From: Lytechinus pictus
Lineage: Eukaryota
Length of the DNA: 64,000 nt
Direction of reading: 5' to 3'
NCBI RefSeq assembly: GCF_037042905.1
Contig: NC_087251.1
Coordinates: 14,758,001 to 14,822,000 of the forward strand
Shown here: piece after piece, positions 3,001 through 32,780 of the stretch
Numbering within the stretch: the first letter of the stretch is position 1
Layout: the number at the start of each line of letters is the position of its first letter
The notes under the pieces: model-generated
Database searches by the model: none
Told to the model about the DNA's origin: nothing
What the model saw: the letters and a program-made list of their open reading frames with translations, nothing else
Program-made: the position numbers and the translations under genes

Positions 3001-6000
3001 GGTTTGAAGATATTACGTAAAAGAGTCAGGAAAATACTACTCCTAAAATTACAGTGGTTGTTTTACATTATTTTTGGAGAACCAATTGTATGCATTTCAT
3101 TATAAATATTAAAGATTGTTTTTCGATGCCATAATCACTTTACAGACAAAAGCCCAATATATTATAAAACTGATAGGTGTTGTAAGAAACTGAATCAAAT
3201 TACCATTGTAAGACCTGGTTGCATGCCCGCTCTGACTGCTTCTATCTGTGTTGGAGTAAACTGGATGGCATTCCTGTGAACACAGAGAATATGATCAAAT
3301 AGAAGAGATATTTGAATCCCTGCATCACTAATACTTTAATAAAAAGAAACAAAAGCAGTTTATTCATAAATTTCAAAACATCATTCAGCTGTTGGAGCAA
3401 TCATATTCTCTATTAACTGCATATCAATGGCTAAGAATTTAAATAATGTATTCACAAAACCATAACGAAGTAAACCAAGCCACTGAGTTGCTTGGGGTTA
3501 ATATCAACAAATTATGTATCATATAGTACTCATTCGTGAAGTTTCTAAGAGCTTTACAAAATAATTAATAACATGAGGGAAGACAGCATAACAGAATTAA
3601 ATATATGAAATGATTTGTTTGAAGATTGAGGAGGGAAAAACAGTCTCCTTTCTTGAATACAAATGGTAACACTGTACATGTAGATGTGTATTTTTATGAA
3701 ATGATATAAAATTTTTATTATATTGACTGACTTTTTTGGTTGGTTGTATGGATAAGGGCCTCTGTTAGGAATGATGTGAGGTTCAACGATGATTTCCTTC
3801 TTGGCTATCATCGGAGTGGTGTCATCCACCTTACGTTTCTTTCCTGTAGAACCTCCTTTCTCAGCTTCTGGAAATGTTATCCTGCAGTCAGAGAAAAGGG
3901 AGGGTAATCTATCTCTCTCTTTACAAAGAATCATAGGATATCATACTTCTTACCCCCCCCCCCACCACCACCATCAACACCACCACTGCTGCTGCCGCCG
4001 CCGCCACCGCCGCCACCATCATCACCACCACCACCACCACTACTACTACTACTGCTGCTACTACTTCTTCCTCCACCTCCTATTCTTACTTCATTTTACT
4101 TCTCCTCATTATTTTCCTCTCTTCCTTATATTTTCTCCTCCTCCTTCTACTGTTCTTCTTCTGCTATACTTTTCACTCTCCTCCTCTCCTTATCCTTCTC
4201 TTTCTCCTACTTGTTATCATTCCCTTTCATCGTCTTCTGTAAAATTGTCTCCTTCATTCCTGTTTTTGTCCTTATTGTCTTCATCTGCATCTTCATCTTC
4301 TTCTTCTTGGTCTTCTATTTTCATCATCTTTTCCTAAGATTAACAGAGGTATTCTCATGCATATGCTTAAAAGTAAGGGTGAGGATTTAAATCTGAATAT
4401 GAGCCTTCAGTTGTTCAAAATCACAAACCTGAAAGGAGGCACTAATTTGGCTGGGTCATCGGTTATTAACTTGACCATATGGTCTGGGAAGCTAGCCCTA
4501 AGATGGTCAGCATTCAAAAATGTGTCGTTCCAGTCCAAAGTTGAAATCTGTTTGGCCATCCTGTAAAAAAAATGAGAAGAAATTATCAATTTCACAGTTG
4601 TAAATTAAAAGATGAAGGGGTTGAATAATTGATTTAAGTTGTCATGTTCTTTACATTAACTCTGAATATGAACAATTTTGATACCACTCTCGTACCATTT
4701 TAACATTCGGATTTCGTCATTATTAGAGTAAAATTTATTAGAATGGTATGGAATGTACATTGAAATCCTCAAATAAACACTATTGGTGAAAGTGAAAGGT
4801 GACTTGGATGTTTTAGCTAGATCATTCTGAAGCCAAACTGAAGAAAGATAGCATATCCATTCATATTGCTGTGGAATGAACCCTATCTCATCCACTTATA
4901 AAATAAACTTTGCTATTTCTAAAGATAACGCTAATTTTCAAGAAGAACAAAATGAAACAAAGTCTAAATCCTATTTTTTAAATGGTCGAGAAATTAAACA
5001 AATATATGAAGAAAAACAACCAATAATTTTACTCCCTGAACACAAACAACACACATATTACATTATATTGACCATAAACCCCAAGGAAATAATAATTTAG
5101 TTCTTACTTGGAGTAATGAGCTGCTCCTGGATCCCCATACCCTAGAAGAATATCATGTAACCAGTCAGGTACTACACAGTCAGTATTCATCAGGTCTCGG
5201 ATAGTCTCCAGAACAGCCTACAAGAAAGGATCAGACAACATTACATATGCATTACATCCAAACCTATGACATGGGACTGAGGAACTATTTTTATTTTCAT
5301 TCTGTTAAATGAAATGTCATCATCCTGGCTACTGTTGTAATCAGAATTTCAAACTTTTAGGTCAGACAGGAATAGATTTAGCTTTATAGACTAAACAGTC
5401 AGACAGGAATAGATTTAGCTTTATAGACTAAACTGTCATTCATACATGTTTATTCAGATATCCAGGATGGAAAATTCCTTTCTCGATAGGTTACAAGAAC
5501 TTTTCAATTCTTCTGAGAGGCAAGTCTCAGTGTGTTGCAAACTGGCCCTGTTCACACTACTTACATGCCAGCTGTGCACTCTCAGGCACAGTGTACAGCA
5601 AACCTTGATATTACTGGTTGGTTTTCTAGACAGCTTTAAACTACCATTTCATGTTAGAGTATCTGATGTTCTTAATCAGACACTAGGAAAATGCTTGGCA
5701 TACCTCTCATTCCATCAGAATCCAATTATTCTAATTTCAACAAAGTTAATTCATTTCTTTAATGAATGTTTCCACATACCTTGAAATTGTTTTCCTTTGG
5801 CTTCCTCCTCATCATGATATTAAAGCTCTCATAAGCATCCTCAGACCCAGAGGAAGCTGTCTTGGCCATGTCCTTCTGGTATTGGTTAGGGTCTAGCCAT
5901 ACTCTGTAGGTTCTAGTGATACCTGGTAGATCAGGCTTGGGTTCTGGACCTAAACAAAAATATAAAGAGTAAATATGTGACAACATATCTGAAAACATTA

Positions 6001-15000: not shown

Positions 15001-18000
15001 TCCTCTTCTTATTATGAATAGAATAGTTGGCTCTAGGTTCAGAATAGGGGAGTTTGCTATTACATGCATATTCAAAGAACATGCTACTAGATATGTTGTT
15101 TATTTTAATTGTGAAATTCCTTGGCTTTGAATTTAGAGTTTTGATTGTTTTAAAGGGGAATCCAGCCTAGGCCATAAAATGATGTGTTGGGACAGAGAAA
15201 AATAAATTAAACAGAATGGTGAAAGTTTGAAAGAAATCGGACAAGCAATAAGAAAGTTATAGCTGCTTTAAAATTGAGATCACTAATACTATGTAGATTT
15301 CAAATTGGCAACTGGGTAAGTAAATTATGACAAGGGGCAAGGACAACTTTCCCATAGGCCATGTACTTTATTATCAGGGATTTGTGGTTTTCTCCTAAGT
15401 ACCCATTCCCCTGGGGCAGTAATCTAAATATAACCCAGGTAGTATATTGCTTTATGTCCTCATGGAAGAAAAATATAATTTGAAATAAAATTTTTGGGAA
15501 AAATGAAATTTTAGCAATAATATGTATTGGAGTACATGGAAGAGTAGTCCTTGCCTTACATCACTATGACATCACATATGCGGCCAATTTGAAGTCTCCA
15601 TGGGTATAGTGATTACCAATATTTACAACATTTAAAAATTCATAACTTTCTTGTTGTTTGTCCAATATTGTTCAAACGTTCACCTATCAACTTGTCTGAT
15701 ATTTCTTTTCCTTACAAAAACAAGTTTTTATTTGGGTTGGATTCCCCTTTAAAGCACCTAGTTCATACATACCAAGGTTTTTTACCAGACTACTAAGAAA
15801 GCATGAATGCCTGTGAGCAAGCAACCAGGGGACCAACGGCTTAAGATCCTCTCCGAGGGACCTGGTAATGAGGATAAATGCCTTACCAAAGGGCACTAGC
15901 GCACTACTTGGGAATCGAACCCGGGTCACCAGAATCCGAAACCCTTGCTCTACCGACTGAGCTATCGCGCATTATACAAAAAAAATGTCCTTTCCCTTGC
16001 GATTCAAACACAAAATACAAATAATGAAGTTGAGTATTATAACTTAATCTCAGTCTCCTGATTAAATCTTCTCTTACCTCTTCTTTGTCTCCTCATCTTG
16101 TTTGGCGTCATTTTTCTTGATGATATTCCAAAATTTCTTGTATTTGGGATAGGCTTTCAGCTCTGTTTCTAGTCTTCCCTGATGGCAAAAAATTAGAAAA
16201 AGGGTAAACTTTATATATATTCTCTTTTATATTTCACCTCACTAAACATGTACTTTAGAACAGATCGTTGCAGTACATCAGAGCCAAGACAACAGTAGAA
16301 TCCTTCCAGAAAGCATTCAAATATCATCTCTTCATCCTAGAAAAAACTTTCAACAATTCATCTATTGTACTTGATTATGTTCATATATATGTACTTTGTC
16401 AAGCATTTAGAGACTGATTTATATCACCATAATAAAGCAATGTACAAGTAAACATATAATATTTCATTTGTCTTTAACTGATGCAAAATTGAATTTCTAA
16501 AATGGAAAAAAAAAAATGTGATGTAACTTACCGGTAGAAGACACACCCACATTGGAAGGGATACCAGCCTCTGAACTTGCTCTCGTATCACATCAACTTC
16601 CTACAATTACAAAACATGTCAAGTGACATTTAATCAACATATCAGATTATCATGACATCCTTACAAAATAAGGCATCATCTTGCAAATAAAAGCTTTCTA
16701 GATCCATTGTAAATTGTAGAACAAAAGGATTATTATTTTTAAGCATATCTTTTTGGTACAGAGCCAGAGAAACTTTGTGAAAAATTCATGTAGATCGTCA
16801 CTATGATGATCATCACTATGTTGATCACTATGCAGATCATCACTTTAAATCATAATCATATTAATCATATTGCAAAATACATAAAATCCAACTCCCCAAT
16901 GACTCTGTAATGTGCAAAGTGATTATTCTTCATAATCTTAGAATTATATTCATCACCATCACAACAACCACCATCATAGGAAATATGATTTTTCTACAGG
17001 GATAACATAAAATGTTATTTCTTAAGTCAACTTTCTTTAATTTTTGTTCAACAACAGTCCTATTATGAAGTATATTCAATGAACAATCAATTAATCTCAT
17101 AGTAAAAACGAAACAAATCAAGGAGCCAGGTCTGCAAGGACAAATCAAAATCTAAAGTCAATAAAAAAAAGTACATGCCAATATGATGTCATTTAACTTT
17201 AAATGTCAGAAACTTATGTATTGTCAATATTTAAAGGATATGAATATCAATCAACATCATTGAAAAAACAACAATAACCCAAATTGCACTATGAACTGGG
17301 CACTCAGAAAAATCCATAAAGTAAAAAGAAAAAATACTCTTCACAATAGGGGCGGTTAACACAAAGCATAATGATTAATCACAGGAGTAATTAACTGATT
17401 ACATTGATAACCATGTACAAATCAATTGCAAGATTGTTCAAACAATTATAGCTTTGTGTTGCAAGGTTTCACCTACCAGACTGTTGAAACAATGAATGAG
17501 GAAGATGAGGAGTACTGTCCGTTCTCTCAGTGATATAGTAAGATCCTTTATGGCACCCAAGGTTAGCTTTAGAACTTGGTGGAAGAATGCTGGAAATTGC
17601 TCAGGTTTCTTCTTGCAAGCCTAGTAATTAAAATGTCAATGAATAAGAACATTGACCAGGTACTAAATACTACTCTTCAAATGTCATACCTTGAAGTACT
17701 ACATAGTAATAATAGCAATATTGTCAACAAAAGAATGCTCAAAATACCCAACAATTGTATAGACAGACAACAACAAAGACATAACAAACAGTATAGCATA
17801 TTTAAGTGTGACATCATATTTTTGCACTTCATCATTTTCATTTTTCATGATCATAGTTTTGGTAGCAGATGATAAAAAACCCTCCACACAGAAAATTTGG
17901 AATGAATCAGTACAATAGTGTTTCTCATATGTCATCACATTTAAGCTATGATCCCCAAAATGTTTGGGCTGCAAAGAGTATCCTTCATTGCATTTCTATG

Positions 18001-28260: not shown

Positions 28261-29868
28261 AATCACCGTGACAAAATACCTAGAAGGGCTCATTTTCTGG
28301 TCTTAATCTCCCTTATATACTTCAGACAATATAATGTATGTCCTTTGCGAGGTAACACTTTTTATTTCAAACTACGCATTAGCGTCCCAGAAGTTGATTT
28401 TATATTATTTGTTTTTGTTTTTTTCATATTTTGAAATATTTAGTTCTCAGTTTATTCTTTTTCATTCTTTGCCATGAAGTTGCAGGCACACAGTGAATTT
28501 TATTCAATGAACCTCTTACCTAATAGTGAAGTCGGAGAAGCAAGACATTATGCCTTTCCGTTTTTTCCGTTATAACATTGGCTTATGTTTTTTTTCTCGT
28601 GAACAAACATAATCTTTTTAAAGTGAATGCTTTGCTGTACAGGCAAAGAGAATTAGATTTAAAATGGAAATGTCTTGTAGCAAGCTGATTTTTTTTTCAT
28701 GATTTGGGTCCAGGAAAATGTTTGGAAAAACAAAGTCCTCAGGGGGGGGGGGTGTCAGTACTCCAAGATGGCGTCCAAAATGACGGCTATTCACAGAAAA
28801 GAAACATAGCTCATTATTTACACTAGACATCCAATTTCGTGCATATTTGCTTTAAAGGGGTAAAAAGATGTAGTCACACAGGTTAGAGTGAAAATAAGCA
28901 GACCAAGATACCTAAAAATCCAAGATGGCGTCCGAAGTCAAATTTATATTACACAATTCATCTATTATATACTTTAATGTCTTAATTTGTTTCTATTCAA
29001 TGGTTTTAATGGTCAAATAGTACAGTAGGACAAGTTGTAAGGATCAACAATCATAGTATTTCTTATCATATGAATGGTGCTTTTTGTGAATAATTATTCA
29101 TCTGGTTGTCTTTAGCGTCAGCATTGCCGCTTTGCGTAATGATGCCAGAGGCGGTCCACTTTTTTTCCTTCTTCTTTTTACTGATGGGAGGGCGATGTTC
29201 TTGCTCAGAGTGAAACAATATCGAATTGGAAAATGAAAAGGATATAACCTTATTAGTATAGTACATGGATGAAAATGAATATATTTGTGGCACGATTAAG
29301 AATTGGAAAGCTTGACTTAATAATTGTTTAGGACATTCTGAGATGGACGGATTATTACTTTTTAGGACATTTTGAAAGTCTACGTACGAGCATGATGTCA
29401 TACACATAATGGCATTGAACTGGGTAACTTATTTAGACACATCTTCTCCTTGCAATAATGTACAGCATACAAGTTCATTTATGAAGAATTTAATCTTTAA
29501 AATACCACTAAATAATGTGGGAGTACACGCCATTTAATAACATAAAATCATTTTTTACTCATGTGAATACCGAAAGTAATATAATGACCAAGACTTCTGT
29601 GTTCGTGCTCTTCCTTCGCTTGTTTTCTTGCTTTACTCAGATTCGTTTGACCATCTAAGTAACATGCACCATTTTAGGAAGACAACAAAATCTATCAAAT
29701 AAACAAAGAAAACAATATATTGACTTAAAAATCTGTTAATGTTCGGTAAATACTGTTCATTATTTTCTATCCCACAGATAACGCATCACAATGTTGCCGA
29801 CAAGAATTTTCATGCTGTTTGCCCTGTGGCATCTTGTAGCCGTCGTAAATTTGGTTGGATATCGTCCC

Positions 29869-32320
29869 ATGGAGAAAACAACATATGACACAATCTGTAG
29901 TCTCGTACGAGGAGATTTCAAGGTACCACTTGCTGAACGTACAAGACCCGTGATCAATGCTTGTCGAAGGTACTACAGGAATAGGGAGCTTTACTAAGTA
30001 GATGAGGATGGGATCCTTTTTCTTGATGGGAAGAAAGTAGCCAAGGAATCAGATATCGATGGTCAGATCGACCATGCAATGACAACGAGTAAAGGCGCTG
30101 GTGCTCGCAAAATACAGCTCTGTATCAGAAACCAATTTCGTGGAATCAGTGAACGCAGGATCTTAAACAAGCTGGATAATTCTGAAACCTATCAAAAGTC
30201 AAAACCTAGGTTTAAGAATAAAGCAGTTGTAAGACCGATCCAAGCATTTACAGTTCATCGGCATCATCAGGTAGATTTAATAAACATGAGAGACCAAAAA
30301 GTCAATCACAAGGGAAAGACATACCACTATGCTCTGTCAATCATGGACATATTCAGTAGGTACGTCTGGTTGAAGCAATTGGTTTAAAAAACCAGTAAAG
30401 AAGTGGCCAACAGAATGGAGGAAGTCTACTTAGAACATGGACCCCTGCTTGTACTGCATCATGACCAAGGTGGAGAATTTTAAAAAGCCGTAAGGGAAGT
30501 GATGAACAGGCTGCGGGTCCAAATCATCAGCAGCTCGCCATACCACCCACAAAGCCAAGGCAAAGTTTCGAGGTTTATTTTGGCAGGAAGAACAATAACT
30601 TGGTCTCGGCAGAAAAAAAAAAAAGTCAGAATTCGTCACGAAAGTAGTAATGGTATTGTTCGACATACGCCAAGATAATCTGATTTGACAAAACTTCGGA
30701 GATGTCGAATGCGTAAAGCGGCTGCTAAAGCTTGTCGTCGCATTGCCGAACGCATGGTTAACAGATTTATTCGTAGAAATCCACCATCTATCTATGAAAA
30801 GTGGGAGATGGTCCTCGTAAGAACGAGGCACGGCAAACATCACGAGCCCAGAAGATATCAGGTTGTCTCAGGAGTGATCCTCAGGCATAATAGGAAGCAC
30901 CACCGATATCTGGTGAGATATACAGGCCATCCAGACAACAAAACCATTGAAAAGTGGTTTCCTGTACAAGATATAACTAGTATCACAGTCGAAAAAGGCA
31001 CCAGACATGTGCCAAGTCTCTAGAAGAAAATCTAAGGGAACTCTTTTAATTCCCAAAGAATAGGCTGTCGGAAATTGGTCGCCCGATTCGTTATAATCCA
31101 CAAGGAAACGGCAATTGCCAATTCGAGGCAATTGTTGACCAATTAAGAATGCATGGTATTTATCGTTCTGTCGAGGCTTTAAGGCATGAGATTGTCAGCG
31201 ATTTGGCAATCAATCCGTACGACATGACTGGAACTTACTTAGGAAATTTTGTAGATAACACGGATTTCCAACGTTATGTGGAAAATATGGCAAAAGATGG
31301 TTCTTATGGTGATCATCTCGTCCTGCAGAGAGCGAGTGAGCTGTATAATGTTAACATAATTGTGGTTTCATCGATTGGCCCGCACGCAAATGCTATTATC
31401 TCGCCTACAGGGTTTTTTCAAGACTGCTCACCAACAATTCTGCTCGGACATTTCGCTGAAGGTCAAGAAGACCACTATGTCAGTCTGGTGCAGACACCTT
31501 CCGAAGTAGAAGCTGTTATCAATGAAAGCAACAATATATACCGACTTGACAACTTAACGACACAGGATACATCTTCGTCAGATGTTTCTAATGGATTACC
31601 TGATGATCTTTCTAACAACACAGAACGTACACTATCAGTGACGCCAGAAAGCTTCTTTGATATTGACTCAGAAAGTTCATTGCCGATAGGCCTACAGCAA
31701 GAAAGTCAAATGTTTTCGGTATCTCCTCAAAGGTCTATTGTCTCGTCGACTCCCGAGAGTTGTCGGTCTGCGCAACAGGATAGTCCTCATTCTCTTCCGC
31801 CCCAAAGTCCCCTGTCTGTCCAGCTAGAAAGTCCACTTTCTGCGCCTACGGAAAATCCTCTTTCCGTCCCTCTGGAAGTCAGAAAAGAAAGGTCCCAGCG
31901 CATCCAATCAGTTAGCCGATTGTCAGATATGAATTAGACTGCCATCATGAAGCAGTGGCGTCAAGACTACCTCCTGAAATTCTCCAACAGATTATAAGGG
32001 AAACCTTGTTTCTTGATATGGGAATGATTGGTATATTTAATCGCGTGTCTGCAACATTTAAGGAGCTAACAGCTTCAATGTATCCATCATTGCATATCCA
32101 TGCATCCCTTAGTAAAGAACTCGATATTGATGGCTGTAACAAGAGAGCTATTAGCATCAGAAAAATATACACTCGTTCAGGAAAAGGAAGTGGACTGTCC
32201 TTGAGACTTAAAGAATTGTTTGGATCAAGATCCAATTGGATCAATGACTGGTTACTCTTAACGGCCATTAAGTATTCGAGATTTATCATAACGGATATCT
32301 ATTGGAAGAAAGAGCGTTAA
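29869..32320 (+). pseudogene. Decayed transposon polyprotein: Ginger/KRBA2-like DDE integrase + SH3-like tail + OTU cysteine protease + S/P-rich linker + F-box-like C-terminus
   Basis: One frame reads through three TAA stops (29995, 30385, 30481): HQVDLINM...YALSIMDIFSRYVWL..KTSKEVA...HG..VLHHDQGGEF...SSPYHPQSQGKV. Then FEVYFGRK, PPSIYEKWEMVLVR...KWFPVQDITS, the OTU motifs GNGNCQFEAIVDQL (Cys 31116) and EDHYVSL (His 31473), and LPPEILQQIIRETLF...NRVSATFKEL. Confidence 0.85.
31050..31937 (+). CDS. OTU-domain open frame within the transposon relic
   Basis: Stop-free frame containing the OTU Cys motif, YVENMAKDGSYGDHLVLQRASELYNVNIIVVSS and LLGHFAEGQEDHYVSL; no ATG upstream of the Cys in this frame. 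Confidence 0.6.
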   Translation, partial: FPKNRLSEIGRPIRYNPQGNGNCQFEAIVDQLRMHGIYRSVEALRHEIVSDLAINPYDMTGTYLGNFVDNTDFQRYVENMAKDGSYGDHLVLQRASELYNVNIIVVSSIGPHANAIISPTGFFQDCSPTILLGHFAEGQEDHYVSLVQTPSEVEAVINESNNIYRLDNLTTQDTSSSDVSNGLPDDLSNNTERTLSVTPESFFDIDSESSLPIGLQQESQMFSVSPQRSIVSSTPESCRSAQQDSPHSLPPQSPLSVQLESPLSAPTENPLSVPLEVRKERSQRIQSVSRLSDMN

Positions 32321-32420
32321 GACAACCGTTGCGGCCAGAAATTTACATAGACCTAGGAAATTTAAAGAAAAATTGACACTTCCCAAACATCTTAACATTT
32401 ACTGTATCTTATAAAATAGA

Positions 32421-32606
32421 GGAGGCGCGATAGCTCAGTCGGTGGAGCGGGGGTTTTTTATTCCGGTGACCCGGGTTCGATTTCCAAATGGTGCGCTTGT
32501 GCCCTTTGGTGAGGCATTTATCCTCATTACCAGACCTTAAGCCGTTGGTCCCCTGGTTGCTTGCTCACAGGCATTCGTGCTTTCTTAGCAGTCAGGTAAA
32601 AAACCT
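32421..32606 (+). mobile_element. tRNA-derived SINE
   Basis: TAGCTCAGTCGG A box, GGTTCGATT B box; same family as 15776-15970. Confidence 0.85.
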
Positions 32607-32696
32607 CGGTAAAACCTAAACCTATCATTACATATGAATTGTGCTATCATAACAAAATTGTAGTGTAGCGGTAGTGAAGTGGAGCCTGCACGAACT

Positions 32697-32780
32697 TAGA
32701 CCAAAAGCTTCAGTCTCTGTATTTTGGTTGTTCCGCTGAACTACGTTGGCTCCACTCACCAATACATAGACTGAAGAGCT
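32697..32780 (-). mobile_element. Fragment (right end) of the TAGAC..GTCTA family seen at 35951-38952
   Basis: Reverse complement matches ...gtgagtgaagccaacggagttcagc...acagagaccgaagcttttggtcta. Confidence 0.75.

Follow-up and report, generated by a model that had tools for sequence, protein, structure and literature searches.

A 64,000-nucleotide stretch of the Lytechinus pictus genome (NC_087251.1, positions 14,758,001 to 14,822,000 of the forward strand; hereafter the window) contains a single decayed copy of a transposon, marked by stops, frameshifts, and the deletion of the third catalytic residue of its integrase. The copy belongs to a widespread family of marine-animal transposons. Judged by the sequences of its members, the arrangement of integrase, SH3-like domain, OTU domain, linker, and a C-terminal module of ~120 residues in one frame is a trait of this family. 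The architecture, the termini, the F-box fold at the start of the module, purifying selection on each domain, and a signal-peptide-like leader are established by computation with high confidence. The whole is best explained as a Ginger2-like transposon without the H2C2 finger, in which one open reading frame (ORF) specifies a product that would be targeted to the endoplasmic reticulum (ER) and would partly escape to the cytosol, a reading that we give a probability of roughly 0.6.

Organization and Decay of the Copy in the Window

The features of the copy are listed by their positions in the window.

29760..29777 (+): pyrimidine tract and 3' splice acceptor just 5' of the coding exon (from sequence)
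29791..29859 (+): start ATG and signal-peptide-like leader, end approximate (own heuristic)
29869..30255 (+): N-terminal extension of the integrase, then a helical N-terminal domain that lacks H2C2 zinc ligands; interrupted by a stop at 29995 (from alignment)
30256..30567 (+): DDE integrase core, D30274 and D30463 kept, third residue (E) deleted; stops at 30385 and 30481
30567..30996 (+): remnant of the core end, long helix, and SH3-like integrase C-terminal domain, in broken frames
31077..31487 (+): predicted OTU deubiquitinase-type domain, Cys 31116 and His 31473 intact (Pfam OTU, E 1.4e-9)
31488..31960 (+): low-complexity S/P/acidic linker that holds the frame change (from sequence; the counterpart in the relative P0013 is disordered in its model)
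31961..32080 (+): F-box, three helices (family conservation, AlphaFold2 model, structure matches)
32081..32320 (+): conserved alpha/beta domain of ~78 residues with a W-K/R motif at its end and stop TAA at 32318-32320 (candidate substrate-binding part, no family assigned)

Three pieces of the copy (29869-30588, 31050-31934, and 31916-32317) were scanned against Pfam with stops read as X. The first matched rve at an E-value of 5.5e-7 and 30.2 bits, just below the cut-off of 32.6, the second matched OTU above the cut-off (E 1.4e-9), and the third gave a weak F-box-like match (E 0.093, 13 bits against a cut-off of 24.3). The SH3-like piece had a weak Agenet/Tudor-like match (E 0.024). A first-pass annotation, made from the letters of the window, had named two integrase aspartates and the catalytic pair of an OTU domain; the corresponding codons are indeed present (GAT at 30274, GAC at 30463, TGC at 31116, and CAC at 31473), and the OTU assignment is borne out by the Pfam match and the intact Cys and His.

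The same annotation had described one reconstructable polyprotein that begins at 29869. The order of domains holds, and intact relatives encode them in one frame, but the window copy cannot be read through. About 49 codons are deleted after QGKV (30565), with loss of the catalytic Glu, a residue kept by all 15 aligned relatives, and FEVYFGRK resumes at 30567 in another frame. In-frame stops occur at 29995, 30385, 30481, 30676, and 31021, and the OTU frame closes at 31935. Because relatives carry the OTU and F-box parts in one frame, the frameshift that had been noticed between them can be attributed to damage. The domains do lie in the interval from 29869, but the frame begins earlier, at an ATG at 29791 that stands 13 bases past the splice acceptor (AG at 29776-29777) and opens with a hydrophobic leader that had been overlooked; position 29869 is a second in-frame ATG, after the leader. 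An exon upstream of the acceptor at 29760..29777 was not found in the window sequence. The arrangement of an acceptor before the ATG, as read from DNA alone, recurs in the paralogues L056 and L057 and in several metagenome loci.

Relatives and Family Architecture

Apart from the window copy itself, a DNA search of the genome returned only a 229-bp piece of the 3' end, at 80%. Protein searches of the genome recovered two divergent elements. One of these (L056) encodes the integrase, OTU, and C-terminal module, with the OTU and module sharing one frame. The other (L057:3182-5530, minus strand; G000:C14) is an ORF of 783 residues with a leader and intact DDE and OTU; a broken remnant of the module, read by eye, lies past its stop, and no terminal inverted repeat (TIR) was found. 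A paralogous ORF in the genome is 97% identical to an L. pictus protein, and the Skp1 exon there matches L. pictus Skp1 at 100% identity. L057 is possibly a domesticated gene. Near-identical genes are annotated in two Lytechinus species, and Diadema relatives (63%) keep the leader and OTU with altered catalytic motifs.

A search with the L057 ORF recovered 34 proteins, seven of which have the integrase, OTU, and module in one chain. Among the seven are proteins from a coral (Oculina) and from a grouper (Epinephelus), the grouper sequence being truncated at its end. The core of a fish member, P0019 from Epinephelus moara, is 55% identical to that of the window copy. In the available text of PMC3575427, no Ginger2 transposon is reported from vertebrates.

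A profile of the module matched 531 protein clusters (clustered at 50% identity). Our survey covered 156 module sequences, comprising 148 new ones from the best 150 matches and eight found earlier; 146 of them reach the end of the profile, and 134 of these 146 terminate within 10 residues. Among module-bearing proteins with at least 500 residues upstream, 22 of 25 have both core and OTU, and among those with at least 200 residues upstream, 40 of 42 have the OTU. Relatives are encoded by 375 of 583 candidate stretches in metagenome contigs, from which 80 loci were kept. Where there was room after the core (44 loci), 32 encode OTU and module, nine OTU only, and three neither. Ratios of nonsynonymous to synonymous substitution (dN/dS) between related copies, from pairs that share members, were 0.15 for the core (8 pairs), 0.26 for the OTU (8 pairs), 0.23 for the F-box (6 pairs), and 0.32 for the terminal domain (7 pairs). 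The first-pass annotation had singled out the C-terminus of intact homologues as a check on its reading; it is kept in them, in the same frame as the integrase and OTU.

A viral origin was considered and rejected: viral contigs offered 13 candidate stretches, one of which encoded a relative, and this one lay outside the family. Several unusual arrangements were also observed. In P0128, two OTU stretches and two F-box-like stretches (by eye) stand in tandem. In P0176, the module is followed by a stretch that resembles the start of Ulp1. P0070, a fathead minnow gene model, is a KDZ-like protein (weak CxC4 and SAP matches) that ends in the same F-box module; this could mean either that Zisupton-type elements share the module or that P0070 is a chimeric prediction. 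Two copies that are 98.8% alike over 7.5 kb (L058:419-9901 and L059:1-8526) contain the integrase exon of a subclade without the leader. This exon ends at a likely splice donor, beside a tandem array of ~291 bp, and neither OTU nor module was found in the DNA fetched.

The C-Terminal Module and Its F-Box

Modelling indicates that the first 45 residues of the module are a genuine F-box fold under purifying selection. Across 118 module sequences, conservation stands at 94, 81, 64, 97, 92, and 92% for the L-P-x-E, I, V, and F positions, and the family has ~3 extra residues between helices. AlphaFold2 (AF2), given an 88-row alignment, predicted three helices followed by a small alpha/beta domain (pLDDT 94.8). 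When this model was compared with 48,161 chains, the ten best matches were all F-box proteins (COI1, Skp2, FBH1, FBXO42, FBXL17, FBXL2, and others).

The first-pass annotation had also suggested a structure prediction with Skp1. The modelled complex of the module with L. pictus Skp1 scored 0.73 in three runs against 0.01 for the best control, but this score shows likeness rather than binding because F-box/Skp1 complexes have already been solved. The mark for such scores is reached by 51 of 78 solved versus 2 of 108 mismatched microbial pairs, and by 39 of 65 versus 2 of 126 eukaryotic pairs. The predicted interface involves module residues 3-36 and Skp1 residues 100-159; the runs agree in at least 64% of contacts, with a partner pLDDT of 47-49. 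The model supports binding of the module to Skp1, though it may reflect likeness to the solved complexes.

The limited meaning of the Skp1 score is one of several points that weigh against the F-box assignment. The structure matches have Z scores of 4.2-5.0 (root-mean-square deviation, rmsd, 1.6-3.3; 38-43 residues aligned), which are low and of a common magnitude, and non-F-box rows start at Z 4.1. F-box scores were below the Pfam cut-off in every protein scanned (best 20.6 bits versus 24.3), with sub-threshold matches in four of 10 members at E <= 1 and in five of 48 proteins at E <= 0.01. Foldseek searches of the module against PDB and BFVD returned nothing at E <= 0.001; a Pandoravirus F-box protein aligned at an rmsd of 1.5 over 40 columns, which was not significant. 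A search of PDB sequences with the module profile gave three matches, the best at E 0.56. The F-box-like C-terminus of the first-pass annotation nevertheless has, by structure match, the genuine fold, though it lies below the Pfam cut-off.

The terminal domain of ~78 residues is a candidate substrate-binding module. It had no structure match in the Atlas with a TM score over 0.5 and only a feature match of 0.76. When the whole module was used for a feature search of the Atlas, clusters of giant-virus and ankyrin proteins scored 0.89-0.92; few features were shared, and the matches are a lead only.

Integrase and Placement Among Transposons

In a model of the intact relative P0013, residues 23-450 align with the integrases of foamy virus and Ty3 (Z 22.2 and 20.4), residues 476-632 match OTUD3 (Z 15.9, rmsd 3.9 over 140 residues), and the linker is disordered. 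No Integrase_H2C2 Pfam match was found in the family proteins scanned, though the outgroup P0029 matches, and the family alignment has no conserved His/Cys pairs. By eye, the YPYY and GPY/F motifs are absent from this alignment.

As defined in the relevant portion of PMC2836005 (Bao, Kapitonov and Jurka 2010), Ginger2 has H2C2, no YPYY, no GPY/F, TIRs of ~50-300 bp, and TGTNR termini, and its target duplication is 4 bp in animals and 5 bp in TDD-4/5. Because the family does not fit the definition of Ginger1 given there and departs from that of Ginger2 in one feature (H2C2), we apply the label Ginger2-like. The earlier designation as a Ginger-group DNA transposon lacking reverse transcriptase stands in those respects, with the qualification that this integrase-type, Ginger2-like transposase is without the H2C2 finger. 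A quick tree was built from 82 cores, with L140 left out and with P0029 as the one classic-type row. In it, 61 family rows lie on one side of a branch from the Gypsy-, retroviral-, and Polinton-type rows, and the urchin Polinton-type integrases form a separate branch with a support of 100.

The suffixes CGi, CySi, and TeGr in Repbase names presumably stand for bivalves. The cores of Ginger2-1/2/3_CGi, -1/2_CySi, and -2_TeGr share, by eye, the DV(F/Y)SR and PY(H/Y)P(Q/E)SQG(K/R) signature of the family (supplement of PMC10045372). With six Repbase Ginger2 cores carrying this signature, the lineage is probably already catalogued, and Repbase appears to file relatives of the OTU/F-box transposase under Ginger2.

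Termini and Target Duplication

Inverted pairs surround the ORF in 10 of the 80 metagenome loci. In L066, L071, L072, L073, L075, and L107, these are TIRs of ~160-300 bp made of short internal repeats; the other four pairs look like unrelated repeats. Intact relatives are bounded by TIRs and span ~4.3-5.7 kb. L071, at 4,444 bp, has TIRs that are 98% alike and a 5-bp target duplication, while the flanks of L066 and L107 are too short for a duplication to be read. L071 and L073 have one long ORF between their TIRs, with no other longer than 175 residues, and therefore no reverse transcriptase. Among the termini of relatives, the pattern TGTNR covers TGTTA, TGTCG, and TGTGG but excludes TGTTC and CGT. 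The window has no TIR left, and no inverted repeat over 27 bp was found between 27001 and 35000; across the whole 64 kb there was no cluster of TIR motifs, and 17 TIR queries gave matches at chance level only. The termini that had eluded the first-pass annotation are thus defined in relatives but not in the window itself.

The repeat pattern of the TIRs has 4,974 matches in the urchin genome versus 83 for a reversed control. An abundant non-autonomous urchin family (e.g., L161, L162, and L143-L160) has elements of ~2.7-6 kb with TGTTACACCCAC termini and target duplications of 5 bp, mostly located in C/G runs. Nine non-autonomous elements were fetched, eight with both ends; of these eight, seven show a 5-bp match, which in three is the only matching length, and the last shows none. 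Likeness of the TIRs would link these elements to the OTU/F-box transposase. No autonomous partner was identified for the non-autonomous family, and two of these elements that were examined contain no coding sequence of the transposase family. At L061:7384 and 11195, two outward-facing TIR arms of one family, ~3.8 kb apart, are the ends of neighbouring copies.

Just past the stop of the window copy, positions 32420-32620 are tRNA-like by eye, with no ARAGORN call, and are probably a short interspersed element (SINE). A high-copy repeat begins at 32698, also past the stop. The SINE-like sequence and the repeat may have displaced the right end of the copy. Elsewhere in the window, ARAGORN calls a tRNA-Arg(TCG) at 15899-15970 on the minus strand.

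A Signal-Peptide-Like Leader

In most loci, the sequence 5' of the folded domain specifies a Met and a short hydrophobic core that leads to a small-residue site, and in many cases a basic patch as well. The cores are 8-14 residues long and are followed by small-residue cut sites. The leader has the sequence features of a cleavable ER signal peptide, from which both targeting and cleavage are predicted. By a heuristic of our own that was drafted after the sequences had been seen, a leader was called in 18 of 31 families; among controls, the rule was satisfied by 1 of 62 frames other than the coding one and at 18 of 3,000 positions chosen at random. The start context provides evidence independent of this rule: the base at -3 of the leader ATG is A in 16 of 18 cases, or in 14 of 16 when two copies in which this base belongs to the splice acceptor are set aside (p 9e-6 for 14 of 16 against a background of 0.33). 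In leader codons 4-17, the fractions of pyrimidines by codon position are 0.56, 0.78, and 0.53, such that only the second position is enriched. The L099 family has its leader in a separate, in-phase upstream exon, and NCBI-named proteins of urchin and starfish begin with the leader. The dN/dS of the leader was 0.54, from 3 pairs only.

The next Met after the leader lies 161, 140, and 213 codons into the transposase in L068, L071, and L073, respectively, inside the catalytic core. No later transmembrane segment was found in 16 of 16 proteins (maximum 19-residue hydropathy of 1.75). In the folded domains, N-glycosylation sequons number 65 versus 100 expected in leader-bearing clades and 34 versus 32 in the leader-less subclade, counts that are weak evidence given that control motifs likewise fall short (78 of 100) and that the sequences share ancestry. 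For L057, screening of ~6% of each of three raw RNA runs gave no depth over 3697-5864 and no splice joint at the acceptor, and one RNA run of uncertain kind gave five low-depth contigs on the ORF. Low-depth reads at L057:2613-3696 in three RNA runs lie in a direction suggestive of antisense transcription across the ORF's 3' end.

A Proposed Route and Its Alternatives

The OTU and F-box domains need ubiquitin and Skp1, both of which are cytosolic or nuclear. The integrase, like the OTU and F-box, depends on the cytosol or nucleus, whereas its chain seems to be directed to the ER; escape from the ER is the simplest reading, and we propose it here. The transposase would be targeted to the ER and its leader cut off, and a fraction would reach the cytosol of the same cell via aborted translocation or retrotranslocation, as does the hepatitis B precore protein. 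There the transposase would survive through removal of its ubiquitin by the OTU, and the F-box would dock on Skp1/Cul1, either as a self-destruct timer or to bring about degradation of a host factor to which the terminal domain binds. The basic patch that follows the leader would aid nuclear entry, and the integrase would insert the element with a 5-bp stagger. The detour through the ER would keep nuclear transposase low. The suggestion of the first-pass annotation that the element might manipulate ubiquitin-based silencing by the host, or its own turnover, has the standing of a conjecture. Among the routes considered, we favor ER targeting and escape tentatively, at somewhat less than even odds.

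Several observations, in addition to the post hoc nature of the leader rule, weigh against the overall reading. No leader was called in 13 of 31 families, in some of them because it is interrupted by an intron. The leader is absent from one subclade, to which the complete element L107 belongs, and is therefore not essential to the lineage. About half of the lineages, the window copy included, have a Met right after the leader, and in L071 and L073 the frame stays open for ~40 codons further upstream to another ATG. The complete elements L073 and L075 show no target duplication, perhaps because the assembly mixed copies. Finally, the family branch in the tree has an SH-aLRT of 80, at which the family is neither shown nor rejected.

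It is possible, though rather unlikely, that the leader serves only to limit dose, with most of the product lost to the ER and the working transposase arising from a downstream start, a splice past the leader, or chains missed by the signal recognition particle (SRP). An in-frame Met at or near the start of the folded domain in the window copy and in L056, L057, L061, L062, L065, L077, L089, and L095 would allow this, as would leader-less members that start with Met and a basic patch and AG dinucleotides after the T-rich leader DNA that, by eye, could act as acceptors. However, in L068, L071, and L073 the first Met after the leader falls within the catalytic core, the context of the leader ATG is strong, and the sequon depletion in leader-bearing clades argues weakly in the other direction. 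That same weak depletion would suit a transposase that is secreted, taken up by other cells (e.g., oocytes), and delivered to the cytosol, where the OTU removes its own ubiquitin and the enzyme moves copies silenced there. A short hydrophobic core and a small-residue cut site give the leader the look of a cleavable one, no later transmembrane segment is present in 16 of 16 proteins, many families have a basic patch past the cut site, and a cut-and-paste element generally needs only protein in trans. We nevertheless consider secretion decidedly unlikely, as we do its extension in which the F-box degrades a host restriction factor and germ-line-silenced copies are moved: no domain for uptake or for crossing membranes was identified, a DNA-binding protein of 800 residues with free cysteines would have to survive the lumen, the leader-less subclade carries the same OTU and F-box, and no precedent was found in the literature searched. 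Less probable still is an uncleaved, N-out signal anchor that would hold the transposase in either the ER membrane or the inner nuclear membrane, all of its domains facing the cytosol or nucleus. This topology would suit the OTU and F-box, and basic residues follow the hydrophobic stretch in many families, and upstream in-frame ATGs precede it in L071 and L073, but cores of only 8-14 residues followed by small-residue cut sites, and the acidic or neutral residues after the core in several families (L064, L129), argue against it.

The leader could also be an artefact of translating the T-rich end of an intron, given that an acceptor lies near the leader in urchin copies and some loci and inside the hydrophobic stretch in L070, L078, L086, and L095. 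We find this scarcely credible, since the pyrimidine enrichment is confined to codon position 2, a leader call arises in just 1 of 62 other frames, the context of the start ATG is significant, the L099 family has the leader in its own in-phase upstream exon, and NCBI-named urchin and starfish proteins begin with it. A separate question concerns the F-box, which might bind Skp1 only as a decoy or scaffold, or whose fold might serve another partner, with no working ligase formed. The sub-threshold Pfam scores, a following domain of only ~78 residues from no known family, and the prospect that an active OTU in the same chain would undo self-ubiquitination all point this way. Conservation of the L-P-x-E, I, V, and F positions in 118 sequences, an F-box dN/dS of 0.23, and a modelled interface on Skp1 residues 100-159 make it unlikely.

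Significance

Transposases are nuclear enzymes, and a conserved signal peptide on one of them is hence hard to explain by current models. The conserved signal-peptide-like leader is the most surprising feature of the family, and any of the routes outlined above, whether ER escape, a dose sink, or secretion, would be a new form of transposase control or delivery. Secretion, if true, would amount to protein-only transposition from cell to cell without a virus particle. Across hundreds of families, selection acts on one chain with both a ubiquitin eraser (OTU) and a predicted SCF adaptor (F-box). Involvement of ubiquitin pathways in transposition was suggested earlier, in the available text of PMC2836005, and natural, intact elements of 4.4 kb make this suggestion directly testable.

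Comparison With Known Systems

The combination of integrase, OTU, and F-box was not found in the literature searched; the texts of Repbase and Dfam entries, which lay outside the search, may describe these domains. The novelty suggested for the architecture by the first-pass annotation thus finds support, within the literature searched, for the combination but is tempered by a transposase lineage that seems to be catalogued as Repbase Ginger2. No report of a signal peptide on a transposase was found in the same literature.

The family resembles Ginger2/TDD elements, as described in the portion of PMC2836005 available, in lacking reverse transcriptase, in its TIRs and, in part, TGT termini, in a DDE core that ends in QSQG.(V/C/I)E, and in the absence of YPYY and GPY/F. 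It shares its 5-bp target duplication with TDD-4/5. Unlike Ginger2, the family is without H2C2 and duplicates 5 bp rather than the 4 bp of animal elements, and the urchin non-autonomous elements lie in C/G-run targets rather than RTATAY. The Ginger2 descriptions in that portion name no OTU, F-box module, or leader, all of which the family has. An integrase-type transposase with a C-terminal OTU protease domain is shared with Ginger1, but the YPYY, H2C2, GPY/F, and 4-bp CCGG/CCGT duplications of Ginger1 are not seen in the family, and the F-box and leader of the family are not reported for Ginger1 in the same text (PMC2836005). IS3EU and GingerRoot differ in their termini (TA..TA) and 6-bp duplication, according to the sections seen of PMC10045372 and PMC6839031. 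The hepatitis B precore protein, which binds nucleic acid, has its signal peptide cleaved, after which 70-80% is released to the cytoplasm (PMC2114996, in part); as an unrelated viral protein without homology, it offers a functional analogy only.

Polinton/Maverick elements have an integrase without H2C2 and, by eye, a similar helical N-terminal stretch. They differ in having many genes, a DNA polymerase, and a 6-bp duplication, whereas the family has one ORF in ~4.3-5.7 kb and duplicates 5 bp. Zisupton carries a Ulp1 SUMO protease in the same protein as its F-box. The family has an OTU instead of Ulp1, and its class of transposase is unrelated to that of Zisupton/KDZ elements, but the F-box itself is common ground, one Zisupton protein isoform being described with this domain in the accessible text of PMC12062965. 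The components are therefore precedented singly, the OTU by Ginger1 and the F-box by Zisupton, while no published description of their combination, or of the leader, was found. That text of PMC12062965 reports no evidence for F-box capture by transposable elements; contrary to this statement, the integrase-OTU-F-box family is a case of an element-borne F-box.

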